Shown in pieces: positions 10,050-64,000 of a stretch of DNA of 64,000 nucleotides. The notes below the pieces were generated by a model. That model made no database searches, was not told where the DNA came from, and saw only the letters and a list, made by a program, of their open reading frames with translations. The position numbers and the translations under genes were made by a program. Location: assembly GCF_003790525.1 (NCBI RefSeq), contig NZ_CP033635.1; one strand, 5' to 3'. How positions within the stretch are numbered: position 1 is the first letter of the stretch; the number at the start of each line of letters is the position of its first letter. The stretch comes from Escherichia coli. Lineage in GTDB: Bacteria; Pseudomonadota; Gammaproteobacteria; Enterobacterales; Enterobacteriaceae.

Positions 10050-10145
10050 TTATTGCCGGATGCGGCATGAACGCGTTATCGGCCTGCGTTTCCGGCACAT
10101 TTTGCAGGCCTGATAAGACGCGGCAAGCGTCGCATCAGGCATGAT
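10050..10145. repeat. REP/BIME cluster between convergent araJ and mak
   Basis: Two copies of the REP core (gccggatgcggc...; ...gacgcggcaagcgtcgcatcaggc) in opposite orientation. Confidence 0.7.
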
Positions 10146-12128: not shown

Positions 12129-12168
12129 TGCCGGATGCGACGCCTGCGGCGTCTTATCCGGCGTACGA
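12129..12168. repeat. REP element downstream of rdgC
   Basis: gccggatgcgacgcctgcggcgtcttatccggc palindromic REP-type sequence. Confidence 0.65.
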
Positions 12169-26780: not shown

Positions 26781-29702
<2,922 letters not shown>

Positions 29703-40179: not shown

Positions 40180-41013
40180 ATGGAACTCATTGAAAAACAT
40201 GCCAGCTTTGGCGGCTGGCAAAATGTGTATCGGCATTATTCCCAATCACTGAAATGTGAAATGAATGTCGGCGTCTATCTCCCACCAAAAGCCGGGAATG
40301 AAAAATTACCGGTGCTGTACTGGCTTTCGGGCCTGACCTGCAACGAGCAGAATTTCATTACTAAATCGGGGATGCAGCGTTACGCGGCTGAGCACAACAT
40401 TATTGTTGTTGCGCCGGACACCAGTCCGCGAGGCAGTCATGTCGCAGATGCCGACCGTTACGATCTCGGGCAAGGTGCCGGGTTTTACCTGAACGCAACG
40501 CAAGCGCCGTGGAATGAACATTACAAAATGTATGATTATATCCACAACGAGCTGCCGGATTTAGTGATGCAACATTTTCCGGCAACGACCAGAAAGTCTA
40601 TCTCAGGTCATTCTATGGGCGGACTGGGCGCGCTGGTGCTGGCGTTACGTAATCCAGATGAATATGTCAGCGTCTCGGCATTTTCGCCCATTGTCTCCCC
40701 ATCGCAAGTACCGTGGGGACAGCAAGCCTTTGCCGCATATCTTGGTGAAAATAAAGAGGCCTGGTTGGATTACGATCCGGTGAGCCTTATTTCACAAGGT
40801 CAACGCGTTGCGGAAATCATGGTTGATCAGGGGTTGAGTGATGATTTTTACGCAGAACAGCTGCGGACTCCAAATCTTGAAAAGATCTGCCAGGAGATGA
40901 ATATCAAGACGTTAATCCGTTATCACGAGGGTTATGATCACAGCTATTATTTTGTCTCCAGTTTTATTGGCGAGCATATTGCGTACCACGCCAATAAACT
41001 GAATATGCGTTAA
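40180..41013 (+). CDS. frmB: S-formylglutathione hydrolase (esterase D family)
   Basis: 277-aa ORF with GHSMGG serine-hydrolase motif. Confidence 0.93.
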   Translation: MELIEKHASFGGWQNVYRHYSQSLKCEMNVGVYLPPKAGNEKLPVLYWLSGLTCNEQNFITKSGMQRYAAEHNIIVVAPDTSPRGSHVADADRYDLGQGAGFYLNATQAPWNEHYKMYDYIHNELPDLVMQHFPATTRKSISGHSMGGLGALVLALRNPDEYVSVSAFSPIVSPSQVPWGQQAFAAYLGENKEAWLDYDPVSLISQGQRVAEIMVDQGLSDDFYAEQLRTPNLEKICQEMNIKTLIRYHEGYDHSYYFVSSFIGEHIAYHANKLNMR

Positions 41014-41019
41014 TAATAG

Positions 41020-41125
41020 TGCACGACTGCCGGATGCGGCGTGAACGCCTTATCCGCCTACATTTCGCCTGGAAACCGTAGGCATGATAAGACTCGCAAA
41101 GCGTCGCATCAGGCATCTGCACACG
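41020..41125. repeat. REP/BIME cluster between frmB and yaiL
   Basis: gccggatgcggcgtgaacgccttatccgcctac and gacgcatcaggcatctgc-type REP units in opposite orientation. Confidence 0.7.
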
Positions 41126-41137
41126 ATTTATCTATGT

Positions 41138-41677
41138 TTACCACATCAAATCATCAGGCACTTTGAAGTCAGCATACGGATCGTCTTCATCCTGCTCTTC
41201 GGCGCTGAGCGCGCTGTGCAACGCAATACTGCTGGCATCACGCTGAGCAATTTTATCGGCAACGCTGGCGGGAATAATGGCGTATTCACCCTCACTATTG
41301 TTATCGACCAACAAGCGGGCAATCGCCAGACGACCATTAATCAACTGCGTTTGCGTGAGCTTATCGACAAAAATCTTCTTAATCAGATTGCCGTCAGTGA
41401 AGTTAAAACCAATATCGCCATTGGCAATGGTAATTCGGTTCATTTCAATGAGCTGCTTCACCTGGGCTTTATATTCTTTCGCCAACGCCGCTTGTTTTTG
41501 TTGTTCGCTAAGCTGTTTATCACGCTCAAGCTGTGCCTTTTTATTTTCTTCTACCGCCGCCCGAGCTTCACGCGCCTGAACGCGCGATTTTTTCGCCGTT
41601 CTCTCGACCTTCGCCGCTTTTTTGCTGGTGACTAATCCTGCTTTGAGCAACTGCTCTTGTAAGGTAAGTTTTGCCAT
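41138..41677 (-). CDS. yaiL: DUF2058-type protein YaiL
   Basis: ORF 41138-41794; start placed at MAKLTLQEQLLKAGLVTSKKAAKVERTAKK... (179 aa); K/E-rich N-terminus. Confidence 0.78.
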   Translation of the reverse strand: MAKLTLQEQLLKAGLVTSKKAAKVERTAKKSRVQAREARAAVEENKKAQLERDKQLSEQQKQAALAKEYKAQVKQLIEMNRITIANGDIGFNFTDGNLIKKIFVDKLTQTQLINGRLAIARLLVDNNSEGEYAIIPASVADKIAQRDASSIALHSALSAEEQDEDDPYADFKVPDDLMW

Positions 41678-41778
41678 CTTTGTTTCCAAACCCGCTGAAT
41701 AATTTTTAGCGAGTATACCTGTAAACGCCGTAGGTGTATTGGGGGGAAGTCCCTTTCGCCCCTGCTTAATAAGGCGCG

Positions 41779-42990
41779 TCAGGCATCTGCACACGGCTGC
41801 ATTCGTGATCTCCGGCTCATCAAAATAAACACTGCCAGGCCGGCAACAAGAATACCCGGCGCAGAAGCGGCCATTACGCCAACCGTGCCAGTGCCTAATG
41901 CCAGCATTTTCCCGGCCAGTAACGGACCGCTCATAGCCCCCAGACGCCCTACCGCCACGGCTGTTCCCACACCTGTTGCGCGGATCTGCGAACTGTAAAA
42001 CAACGGTGCCAGGGCATACAAAACGCTTTGCCCACCTGTCGCAAACAACCCCGCGACGAATCCCGCCAGCAACATACCGTTAAATGACGACACCGTTCCC
42101 AGCGCCAGCAGCGAAGCTAACATGCCGCTATAAATCAGTAGCGACATGGTTACTGGACGCAGCTTATCCATCAATGCGCCCAACATTAACGTCCCGCTTG
42201 CCGCCCCCATTTGCAGTGCAAACATCACCCCTGCCGCCTGCGATGGCTGGAATCCTTGCTCCACCAAAAGCAGCGGTAGCCAGTTGATCAACATGTAGAC
42301 CACCAGCAGAGTGAAGAAATAACACAACCACAGCAGCAGCGTCGCGGTAGCCGTTTCTGGCGCAAATAACGCACGCAGTGGTGGCGCGGCCTGTTTTTCG
42401 CCAGCGAACACCGCCGACTCCGGCAGCCAGCGCATTAACAGCGGCACCAGAATCAACGGCACCACACCACCTACCCAAAACACCGTTTGCCATGCTAAGT
42501 TTGCCCCCGCGAAACCCAGTGTCGCCGCCAGCGCCGCGCCAATGGGAACACCGCAATACATCAGGCTCACTGCCGTCCCACGAAAACGTGGACCCGCGGC
42601 TTCAGACGTCAGGGCGATCAGATTCGGCAACGCCGCCCCCAGCCCGACACCGGTCATCAGCCGCGCAAAGACCAGTGAGGGGAAATCCCAGGCAATCGCC
42701 GTTGCCAGTGAGAACAAACCAAACAGCGCAACTGAGCCAATCAAAATGCGCTTGCGACCATAACGGTCCGCCAGCATCCCGCCAACCAGCGCGCCGGGTA
42801 GCAAACCGAGTATTCCGGCGCTGAATATCCAGCCCATTTGCATTTTATCGAGTGCAAAAGCCTGGGCGATGCCACCCGCCGCAATGCCAGCCGCCTGAAG
42901 ATCCAGCCCTTCCATCAGAGCGACCAAAAAACAAAGCCCGATGGTCAGCATCAGGCGGGATGAAGATGATGAAGGGGTACGAGTCGACAT
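41779..42990 (-). CDS. mhpT: 3-(3-hydroxyphenyl)propionate transporter MhpT (MFS)
   Basis: ORF 41779-43059; start placed at MSTRTPSSSSSRLMLTIGLCFLVALMEG... (403 aa). Confidence 0.88.
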   Translation of the reverse strand: MSTRTPSSSSSRLMLTIGLCFLVALMEGLDLQAAGIAAGGIAQAFALDKMQMGWIFSAGILGLLPGALVGGMLADRYGRKRILIGSVALFGLFSLATAIAWDFPSLVFARLMTGVGLGAALPNLIALTSEAAGPRFRGTAVSLMYCGVPIGAALAATLGFAGANLAWQTVFWVGGVVPLILVPLLMRWLPESAVFAGEKQAAPPLRALFAPETATATLLLWLCYFFTLLVVYMLINWLPLLLVEQGFQPSQAAGVMFALQMGAASGTLMLGALMDKLRPVTMSLLIYSGMLASLLALGTVSSFNGMLLAGFVAGLFATGGQSVLYALAPLFYSSQIRATGVGTAVAVGRLGAMSGPLLAGKMLALGTGTVGVMAASAPGILVAGLAVFILMSRRSRMQPCADA

Positions 42991-43068
42991 AAGATGAACC
43001 TCGTTGCGAGTGCAGGTGAGTCGCGGCTGATACATTGCCAGCCGCGTAATCAGAACCATTTAATGACT

Positions 43069-43125
43069 GCCTACGGGCGAAATATAGGCCGGACAAGACG
43101 TTTACGCCGCATCCGGCAGTCGTGC
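43069..43125. repeat. REP element between mhpT and mhpE
   Basis: ggccggacaagacgtttacgccgcatccggcagtcgtgc REP-type sequence. Confidence 0.65.
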
Positions 43126-51703: not shown

Positions 51704-54816
<3,113 letters not shown>

Positions 54817-56126: not shown

Positions 56127-56162
56127 CAATGTCGGATGCGGCGCGAGCGCCTTATCCGACCA
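56127..56162. repeat. REP element between lacY and lacA
   Basis: gtcggatgcggcgcgagcgccttatccgac palindromic REP-type sequence. Confidence 0.7.
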
Positions 56163-56186
56163 ACATATCAGGACGGAATGATCGCA

Positions 56187-56813: not shown

Positions 56814-56846
56814 AATGTCGGATGCGCCATTGGGCACATCCGACAA
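56814..56846. repeat. REP-like palindrome downstream of lacA
   Basis: gtcggatgcgcc-attgg-gcacatccgac inverted repeat; may also serve as a terminator hairpin between convergent lacA and cynX. Confidence 0.55.
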
Positions 56847-56885
56847 TAATTCACTCTTCCATTATCTGGCGAAACAAGCATCGCA

Positions 56886-60254: not shown

Positions 60255-60337
60255 TTGCCTGATGCGCTACGCTTATCAGGCCTACGAGTTCAGTGCTCTA
60301 CGTAGGCCGGATAAGGCGTTCACGCCGCATCCGGCAT
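60255..60337. repeat. REP/BIME cluster between cynR and codA
   Basis: gcctgatgcgctacgcttatcaggcctac and gtaggccggataaggcgttcacgccgcatccggca REP units. Confidence 0.7.
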
Positions 60338-62907: not shown

Positions 62908-63069
62908 GAAATTCCCCCTTTTTGCTGTTTGAAACCCAAAAAATCCGCCGCATTCTATTCATCTGAAGATAAAAAGCAATCGTTTTCGTAGGGGAATATA
63001 TTTTTTATATGAATGAGTGCAAAAAGGTGGGGGAAAAATTATCGGTGTAAAAACAGTGGGTAGGCATAA

Positions 63070-63138
63070 TAAGACGCGGTAAGCGTCGCATCAGGCATCG
63101 GCGCATGGTGTCGGATGCGCCAGGCGACGCATCCGACA
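63070..63138. repeat. REP/BIME cluster between codB and prpE
   Basis: gacgcggtaagcgtcgcatcaggcat and gtcggatgcgccaggcgacgcatccgac REP-type palindromes. Confidence 0.7.
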
Positions 63139-63143
63139 ATAAC

Positions 63144-64000
63144 CTACTCTTCCATCGCCTGGCGGATCTGATCCAACGACGCAGGATCATCAATGGTCGT
63201 CAGATCCCCAGGATCGCGTCCTTCGCAAATCGCCTGGATCGTGCGGCGCAGCATTTTTCCGGATCGCGTTTTCGGCAATTGCGAGACAAACCAGACGTGC
63301 GCCGGGCGGCCAAAGTTGCCAATCTGGCTGTCCACCAGCGCCATAATCGCCTTCTCTTGCGAATGCGCCACCTCACGATCTTCCAGACTGTCGCTCTCTT
63401 TCGGAATGACAAACGCCACCGCCACCTGCCCTTTCAGCGCATCTTTCACCCCAACCACCGCCACTTCGGCAACGCCCGGATGACTGGAGATACTCTCTTC
63501 AATCTCGCGCGTCCCCAGCCGATGCCCGGCAACGTTAATCACATCATCAGTACGCCCCAGGATAAAGTGATAGCCGTCAGCATCGCGGATGCCCCAGTCA
63601 AAAGTGGCGTACACCGGACGGGAAAACAGCGACCAGTACGTCTTCACAAAGCGGTCGTCGTCGCCCCAGATGGTCTGAATACAGCCTGGCGGCAATGGCC
63701 CCTCCACCACCAGCATCCCTTTCTCATTGACGCCACACGGTTCGCCGGTGACTTCATTAAGCAACTGCACGTTATAGCCATACATCGGCACGCCGGGGCT
63801 TCCCAGACGCGTCGGCCTGTCGTCCAGACCGCGAGCAATCGCCATAATCGGCCAGCCGGATTCGGTCTGCCAGTAGTTGTCGATGACCGGCACATCCAGC
63901 GTATTGCTCACCCAACTGGCGGTCGGCTCGTCCAGCGGTTCTCCAGCCAGATAGAGCACTTCCAGCGACGAGAGATCGTGTTTGCGAATTTCAGCGGTAG
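63144..64000 (-). CDS. prpE: Propionyl-CoA synthetase PrpE, C-terminal part; 5' end beyond window
   Basis: Reading frame open to the window end; C-terminal acyl-CoA synthetase (adenylate-forming) sequence ...GKMLRRTIQAICEGRDPGDLTTIDDPASLDQIRQAMEE. Confidence 0.85.
   Translation of the reverse strand, partial: TAEIRKHDLSSLEVLYLAGEPLDEPTASWVSNTLDVPVIDNYWQTESGWPIMAIARGLDDRPTRLGSPGVPMYGYNVQLLNEVTGEPCGVNEKGMLVVEGPLPPGCIQTIWGDDDRFVKTYWSLFSRPVYATFDWGIRDADGYHFILGRTDDVINVAGHRLGTREIEESISSHPGVAEVAVVGVKDALKGQVAVAFVIPKESDSLEDREVAHSQEKAIMALVDSQIGNFGRPAHVWFVSQLPKTRSGKMLRRTIQAICEGRDPGDLTTIDDPASLDQIRQAMEE

Follow-up and report, generated by a model that had tools for sequence, protein, structure and literature searches.

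The analysed window is a 64,000-nucleotide stretch of the Escherichia coli chromosome that runs from brnQ to prpE and includes the lac and mhp genes as well as frmRAB. Its gene map, following the RefSeq annotation of strain SMS-3-5, reads brnQ, phoRB, sbcDC, araJ, mak and rdgC, further on tauABCD, and then frmRAB, yaiL, mhpT, mhpEFDCBA, mhpR, lacIZYA, cynXST, cynR, codAB and prpE. A 1.2-kb query around the element described below was matched in 5,425 of 5,426 complete E. coli genomes, with 100% identity in SMS-3-5. Compared over longer distances, SMS-3-5 (reverse strand) showed zero differences from window positions 29016-64000 and a single different base against positions 1337-29021. An unbroken 969-aa autotransporter ORF lies at 26793-29702, in a gene that is split by an IS3 family element in SMS-3-5 and by IS3B in K-12 (yaiT). 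Since the window has no IS3 at this site, the DNA must come from a close SMS-3-5 relative that lacks this insertion.

The gene frmB, the last of the frmRAB formaldehyde detoxification genes, and yaiL converge on a 124-bp gap that holds a BIME at 41029-41114, in which a Y-type REP and an inverted Z1-type REP are joined tail to tail (CTAC ... GTAG) by a 16-nt linker. The sequence-only reading had delimited this element as 41020-41125, which correctly frames one BIME together with its flank motifs. The parts of the gap are as follows.

41011-41013, + strand: frmB stop codon.
41020-41028, + strand: left head-side flank motif, TGCACGACT; it joins the tandem BIME units in K-12 and also flanks the Y REP at 43118-43125.
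41029-41061, + strand: frmB-proximal Y-type REP, GCCGGATGCGGCGTGAACGCCTTATCCGCCTAC; covariance model 45.1 bits, E 6e-8; blastn-short against the Y consensus 28/28, E 2e-11.
41062-41077, unstranded: tail-to-tail linker of the short type, ATTTCGCCTGGAAACC, between CTAC and GTAG.
41078-41114, - strand: yaiL-proximal inverted Z1-type REP, GTAGGCATGATAAGACTCGCAAAGCGTCGCATCAGGC; covariance model 35.6 bits, E 7.7e-6; blastn-short against Z1 E 8e-5.
41115-41127, + strand: right head-side flank motif, ATCTGCACACGAT, partly repeated at 41775-41795, at the mhpT stop codon.
41138-41140, - strand: yaiL stop codon.

Both units are eroded. The Y REP, which starts 15 nt past the frmB stop codon, carries a 1-nt deletion (CCGGCCTAC to CCGCCTAC) with its CTAC tag intact, and the Z1 REP, 23 nt from the yaiL stop codon, has an eroded stem and an intact tag. 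Taken singly, the two hairpins are weak (Y, -14.5 kcal/mol, z -2.4; Z1, -9.1 kcal/mol, z -1.1), whereas the Z1 at 10104 and the consensus Y at 60302 each reach -21.3 kcal/mol. Folded as RNA in its entirety, the BIME forms one long REPIN-like hairpin by pairing of Y with the inverted Z1, at an energy of -52.9 kcal/mol (z -4.7) on the + strand, that of frmB, and -52.1 kcal/mol (z -3.3) on the - strand, that of yaiL. The G deletion in Y and a C-to-A change in Z1 face each other in this long hairpin; they were considered as a compensatory pair, and this was rejected because strain FCI5 has the same Z1 variant beside an intact Y.

The identity of these units was assessed with a covariance model built from 16 K-12 REPs of the pgi-mal-ubiA-alr and cvpA-fabB-mnmC regions, which are unrelated to the window, with the known stem imposed. 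Run with filters off, the model found ten distinct REPs in seven gaps of the window (E 6e-11 to 3.5e-3); other matches at E <= 0.77 are opposite-strand echoes of these ten palindromes, with nothing else below E ~2. The 13-mer head motif GCCGGATGCGGCG, allowing at most two mismatches, occurs 17 times in the window versus 3.8 +/- 2.1 times in shuffled sequence, none of 100 shuffles reaching 17. Searches by blastn-short with the REP queries Y, Z1 and Z2 printed in PMC11208160, the Y form being the consensus of 356 REP elements (PMC12306157), recovered nine units (E 5.6e-15 to 1e-3), with strong matches confined to intergenic gaps. A query containing the BIME hit a median of 15 megablast places per genome, and matches of the model also occurred at K-12 loci as well as at four unrelated loci of SMS-3-5.

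Alignment of the ten window REPs gave a consistent stem, in which 94.8% of cells pair versus 35-46% when the partner is slid out of register, and three stem pairs show compensatory changes (G-C/U-A, G-C/A-U/C-G). All ten have a G.U pair at alignment columns 11/29, and the bulge is visible in the MFE structures. The GTAG/CTAC tag is intact in five, both focal units included, and replaced by one-base variants in the other five (CTGC twice, GTAC, CTAT and CAAC). All ten lie outside annotated coding sequence and 3' of a gene, in convergent or tandem gaps, with none in a divergent gap. Their distances from the stop codon are 15 nt after frmB, 9 nt after lacY and 14 nt after cynR, and 19 to 48 nt elsewhere. 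The heads, GCC(G/T)GATG, face the nearest upstream stop codon in 10/10 cases within the window; this was dropped as a general rule because the K-12 pgi REP pair is oriented the opposite way.

These results bear out the sequence-only reading, which had called the palindromes ordinary E. coli REP/BIME sequences and had made this dependent on their fit to REP consensus models: the units match Y, Z1 or Z2, are recovered by an independently built model (45.1 and 35.6 bits for the focal pair, ten REPs in the window), share a conserved stem with compensatory changes, and occupy extragenic 3' sites. The remaining REP and REP-like sites of the window are listed below.

10055-10140, unstranded: BIME in the convergent araJ/mak gap, with Y at 10055-10087 (+), a 16-nt linker and Z1 at 10104-10140 (-); 23.7 and 44.5 bits.
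12130-12166, + strand: single REP, 19 nt past the rdgC stop codon; 39 bits, E 1.4e-6.
41717-41797, unstranded: degenerate relic of linker, inverted Z1 and flank in the yaiL-mhpT gap, of which only the ends survive, CCTGTAAACGCCGTAGG ... CGTCAGGCATCTGCACACG; fold z -0.1.
43084-43117, - strand: single Y REP 3' of mhpE; 47.2 bits; tag CTAT.
56131-56164, + strand: REP within the operon between lacY and lacA, 9 nt past the lacY stop codon; 52 bits, E 1.8e-9; identical in K-12.
56817-56844, unstranded: REP-like, perfect but non-canonical hairpin, GTCGGATGCGCC ATTG GGCACATCCGAC; 9.9 bits, E ~4; -21.2 kcal/mol.
60257-60335, unstranded: BIME-2 unit in the convergent cynR/codA gap, with Z2 at 60257-60285 (+), a 16-nt linker and a consensus Y at 60302-60335 (-); 35.6 and 58.6 bits.
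63060-63096, - strand: single Z1 REP between prpE and codB; 28.9 bits, E 2.4e-4.
63110-63137, unstranded: perfect, non-canonical hairpin, a paralogue of 56817-56844; 10.3 bits, E ~3.4; -23.9 kcal/mol.

The araJ-mak BIME is atypical and of the same kind as the focal one. At 10085-10107 its tags are changed in a complementary manner, CTAC to CTGC and GTAG to GCAG, such that pairing in the long inter-REP hairpin is kept; a claim built on this complementarity was dropped, the first K-12 copy having the GCAG change only. The rdgC REP combines a Y-like outer stem with a Z1-like inner stem (hairpin -25.9 kcal/mol, z -5.4) and is the same in K-12. The cynR-codA BIME-2 matches the consensus at 29/29 and 34/34 positions, its Z2 lying 14 nt past the cynR stop codon. 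IS621 inserts at ATCAGGCCTAC in REPs (PMC11208160), and the sole perfect copy of this target in the window is at 60275-60285 within the same unit, the focal Z1 carrying a one-base variant. Beside the mhpE Y REP, positions 43068-43074 retain TGCCTAC, a 7-nt relic of a partner REP tail. On the - strand at 53577-53591, within the lacZ coding sequence, 15 nt are also identical to the Y REP head, GCCGGATGCGGCGTG; this stretch has a near-palindromic core (GCCGGATGCGGC / GCCGCATCCGGC) and is not a REP, and could be a false positive for motif-based REP finders.

Nine REP-bearing gaps had been proposed, of which seven hold up (about 10050, 12130, 41020, 43070, 56130, 60255 and 63070) and two do not. 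At about 56815, the hairpin has a REP-like head, but its 3' arm is a near-exact complement of that head and not the REP arm CGCCTTATCC, and it is devoid of the GTAG/CTAC tag and of the conserved G.U pair with its adjacent unpaired C/T. Its paralogue at 63110-63137, 6 nt 3' of the prpE stop codon (63144-63146), likewise lacks the G.U/unpaired pattern. At about 41770, the sequence is a relic that gave no match to the covariance model. Alignment shows that it shares two ends with the focal element, CCTG-AAAC-CCGTAGG and CGTCAGGCATCTGCACACG, and that mhpT takes its last codons and stop codon from the head of the relic. The description of the units as often occurring in inverted pairs applies to three of the seven gaps, which hold tail-to-tail pairs. 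The idea that they mark operon boundaries fits in part, failing for the lacY-lacA REP, which lies inside an operon, and maybe also for mhpE-mhpT.

A high density of these palindromes had also been claimed, and this we do not find: ten REPs in 64 kb is near the K-12 average and not exceptional. From published K-12 totals of 584 (PMC3333891) to 697 (PMC12306157) REPs, about 8.1-9.6 would be expected in 64 kb versus the ten observed (Poisson P ~0.3-0.5), and the seven REP-bearing gaps compare with 4.9 predicted from 356 REP elements (P ~0.23). Four arbitrary 50-kb loci of SMS-3-5, searched with the same model, contained 3, 6, 3 and 1 REPs (13 per 200 kb); the density of the window is 2.4 times that of these loci (Poisson P ~0.01), in a small sample of which two loci are mostly long polysaccharide operons. 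By the blast criterion, two K-12 control loci held 11 and 5 REPs. Where K-12 is syntenic with part of the window, 22 REPs occur within 40 kb. We read the density of the window as average to moderately rich, and unremarkable.

The REP content of the same gaps differs between strains, a comparison with other E. coli genomes that the sequence-only reading had proposed. K-12 has more units than the window at five gaps. The araJ-mak gap is 244 bp with two tandem BIMEs in K-12 and 139 bp with one BIME in the window; the frmB-yaiL gap, 223 bp with two BIMEs versus 124 bp with one; the mhpE-mhpT gap, 577 bp with five Y and four Z1 units versus 175 bp with one Y; the cynR-codA gap, 336 bp, with a duplication of ~200 bp that includes the BIME-2 (the unit being present twice), versus 132 bp; and the prpE-codB gap, 329 bp with three REPs and the hairpin versus 236 bp. 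The lacA-cynX gap has wholly different sequence in the two strains, with a Z2 and a truncated Y in K-12 and the hairpin plus a prpE relic in the window.

The focal locus is present in 5,283 of 5,426 complete E. coli genomes (~97%; at least 80% of a 724-bp query covered). Among 59 evenly spaced chromosomes, the focal gap has one BIME copy in 34, two copies in 24 and an aberrant arrangement in one (~58:41, one to two). The locus spans 718-725 bp in the 34 one-copy chromosomes and 823-827 bp in 23 with two copies, the other two of the 59 being a two-copy locus truncated by IS1 and the aberrant locus. Two-copy strains such as K-12, FCI5 and DETEC-S560 carry a tandem duplication of the focal BIME with a period of ~100 bp. 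Three copies of GCACGACT bracket the two K-12 units; this flank motif is also present in the window, and the bracketing is the footprint expected of unit gain and loss. In single-copy strains, the REP arms are nearly invariant and the linker differs in almost every lineage. This variation of the linker, together with that in copy number, is consistent with the published description of BIME linkers as highly variable and of BIME number as varying by locus and strain (PMC3333891).

Two outlier genomes were recorded at this locus. In DETEC-S560 (locus L006, 3173-3900), an IS1 abuts the last frmB codons, 15 bp before the two-copy BIME, and the DNA between tauA and frmB (yaiS to frmA) is deleted. 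The outliers were searched for IS insertion targeted to the focal REP, and the idea was dropped, as the DETEC-S560 IS1 ends in frmB and not in the REP. In HS-02 (locus L007, 1800-1960), the frmB-yaiL gap consists of 160 bp of heavily scrambled BIME-like sequence, which is either real decay or an assembly error.

Repeated sequence also brackets neighbouring genes. The gene yaiL lies between two copies of a module running from linker-GTAGG to TCAGGCATCTGCACACG, at 41068-41124 and 41717-41797, the second being internally degenerate. The two modules share a 17-nt exact repeat (41106-41122 and 41779-41795), within a direct repeat of 95% identity at 41105-41125 and 41775-41795, which suggests that yaiL sits inside an old BIME array. 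The yaiL-mhpT pair is in turn bracketed by inverted Y REPs with the GCACGACT flank, which form a 36-nt inverted repeat at 41021-41056 and 43090-43125 with 92% complementarity. An inversion of yaiL-mhpT between these inverted Y REPs found no support, the frmB-yaiL adjacency being kept in the same 5,283 genomes. Elsewhere in the window, positions 56814-56872 and 63110-63170 correspond, the lacA-cynX gap having a copy, ~80% identical, of the hairpin and the last ~27 nt of prpE (...ACTCTTCCAT..CTGGCG). The 6.3-kb block cynXST-cynR-codAB thus lies between direct repeats of prpE 3'-end sequence, and the lacA-cynX junction has several alleles across E. coli. That REP/BIME-derived sequence has shaped the gene order around the focal element, and that its copy polymorphism acts as a strain-specific dial on frmRAB and yaiL expression, appears to us improbable.

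Published classes of BIME provide a frame for the focal element. BIME-1 combines Y and Z1 with a long conserved L linker, often with an IHF site, and is single-copy; BIME-2 combines Y and Z2 with a short linker and occurs in tandem copies; atypical BIMEs are chimeras that are likewise multi-copy (PMC3333891). The focal element shares with the IHF-binding (RIB/RIP) BIME-1 the Y and Z1 units and their inverted orientation, but its linker is 16 nt long, the IHF core motif WATCAANNNNTTR is absent from the focal gap, as from every REP gap of the window, and it is amplifiable, with two copies in ~40% of genomes. The short linker, the lack of an IHF core and the presence of one or two copies therefore identify it as an atypical BIME and not a BIME-1. 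With BIME-2 elements such as REP325 (naRNA4, Rfam RF02564), it has in common the tail-to-tail pair, the 16-nt linker and tandem amplification, but the partner of Y is a 37-nt Z1, by its best blast match, and not the Z2 that defines BIME-2. The naRNA4 model scored at best 31.8 bits at 41019-41059 under relaxed thresholds, below its gathering threshold of 59.5 bits, and no Rfam family reached its gathering threshold in the whole window.

Relative to the atypical BIMEs of Gilson and Bachellier, as summarised in PMC3333891, the inverse Y plus Z1 arrangement, the short variable linker in place of the long L motif and the strain-variable tandem copy number (one in the window, two in K-12) all agree. 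Nothing essential differs, the focal element being an eroded single unit with the Y deletion and the Z1 stem mismatches. The REPINs of Pseudomonas (PMC3116915) are similar in that two inverted REPs and a spacer form one long hairpin, with dependence on a RAYT presumed; they belong to another sequence family, and E. coli BIMEs amplify locally in tandem. It belongs to a known kind, with no departure from the REP/BIME elements described in E. coli. Overall, we put the probability at about 0.93 that 41029-41114 is an atypical BIME of Y and inverted Z1 in the convergent frmB/yaiL gap, with a 3'-UTR role proposed by analogy.

In this role, the BIME would likely be a 3'-UTR stem-loop that serves as an RNA-decay barrier and a partial terminator. 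As judged from other REPs, it would be transcribed as part of the 3' UTR of each converging mRNA, where the stem-loops (a separate hairpin for each REP, or a single long Y:Z1 hairpin) would impede 3'-to-5' exonucleases and could act as a partial, Rho-dependent transcription stop, so that the upstream message would be protected and read-through into the opposing gene limited. The Y REP, 15 nt past the frmB stop codon, falls within the <16 nt range reported to lower translation of the upstream gene, and might do so here. The stabilisation of RNA and the targeting by IS elements that the sequence-only reading had attributed to these units come from the literature, for REPs in general. REPs have been described as dual partial Rho-dependent terminators and stabilisers that block 3'-to-5' exonucleases, and REPs in convergent gaps are correlated with raised expression of both neighbours, their effects having large context dependence with no uniform effect on half-life (bioRxiv 10.64898/2026.03.23.713779).

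Spread and amplification of the unit may have involved the REP-associated tyrosine transposase (TnpA-REP/RAYT), encoded outside the window, and unequal recombination between the GCACGACT flanks, which together would account for the one- versus two-copy polymorphism. For binding, TnpA-REP uses the GTAG and stem mismatch of a REP; it cleaves both the linker and the inverted partner and can recombine BIMEs in vitro. Its gene, the REPtron, lies between yafL and fhiA and is lost in some E. coli lineages (PMC3333891). Both focal units retain the tag and the stem mismatch.

Several alternatives to a 3'-UTR role were weighed. The focal element may have no function, being selfish DNA left over from REP/BIME proliferation, non-autonomous, in decay and tolerated in a gap where it is harmless. 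This is a serious minority possibility that bears on function alone and leaves the REP/BIME identity untouched. The 1-nt deletion in Y, the several stem mismatches in Z1 and the weak single hairpins (z -2.4 and -1.1) are in line with it, as are the freely polymorphic copy number, the smaller number of copies in the window strain than in K-12 at five gaps, and the REP relics at 41717-41797 and 43068-43074. The erosion of both REPs is as consistent with neutral decay of selfish DNA as with function, and the split between one and two copies across strains reveals no evident constraint. Retention of the BIME at the locus in ~97% of the 5,426 genomes speaks against a mere relic, however, as do the far greater conservation of the REP arms than of the linker between lineages, the strength of the combined long hairpin (z -4.7) and the published genome-wide association of convergent-gap REPs with higher expression of both genes. 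It is rather unlikely that the BIME would instead work at the DNA level as a protein-binding site, bound by gyrase, as proposed for BIME-2-like elements, or by IHF, as proposed for BIME-1, and would relieve or insulate the supercoiling of convergent transcription. Positive supercoils would be expected to accumulate in a gap between convergent units, and binding of host proteins by REP/BIME sequences, with IHF recruitment among the examples, is cited in PMC2817692, PMC3479197 and PMC3333891. The IHF version is excluded by the missing core in all REP gaps of the window and by a 16-nt linker in place of the long L, and a model REP was without a role in chromosome compaction or REP-REP contacts (bioRxiv 10.64898/2026.03.23.713779).

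Two further explanations would deny the elements their REP identity. An ordinary terminator of the intrinsic (Rho-independent) type, acting in both directions on frmRAB and yaiL and only looking like a REP, would suit a convergent gap with GC-rich hairpins and no other terminator, but the results refute it as to identity and we hold it to be very unlikely: a scan of 41014-41137 on both strands returned no terminator site, T-runs are missing after both hairpins whichever strand is read, and the sequence recurs across the genome, at a median of 15 places per genome, and is recognised by REP models from unrelated loci. The palindromes could still less be a CRISPR-like array, a novel regulatory repeat or a product of chance, for which nothing speaks beyond the repetition itself. 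The sequence-only reading had cautioned against mistaking them for CRISPR or a new kind of repeat, rightly so: the REP gaps hold one or two units each, inverted and not direct, and none of the REP loci contains a tandem array; Tandem Repeats Finder reported only one unrelated 15-nt repeat in the whole window; and the enrichment over shuffled sequence and the model E-values exclude chance. An atypical BIME with a likely 3'-UTR role stands as our preferred reading.

The result is mainly a negative one, in that the palindromes can be labelled REP/BIME and set aside when new repeats, CRISPR arrays or regulatory RNAs are sought. The differences from K-12 at five gaps and the split between one and two copies at the focal gap illustrate the known plasticity of BIMEs. 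BIME copy number could provide a simple strain marker, and its differences between strains could offer natural material on a possible tuning of neighbouring-gene expression by REP dosage.
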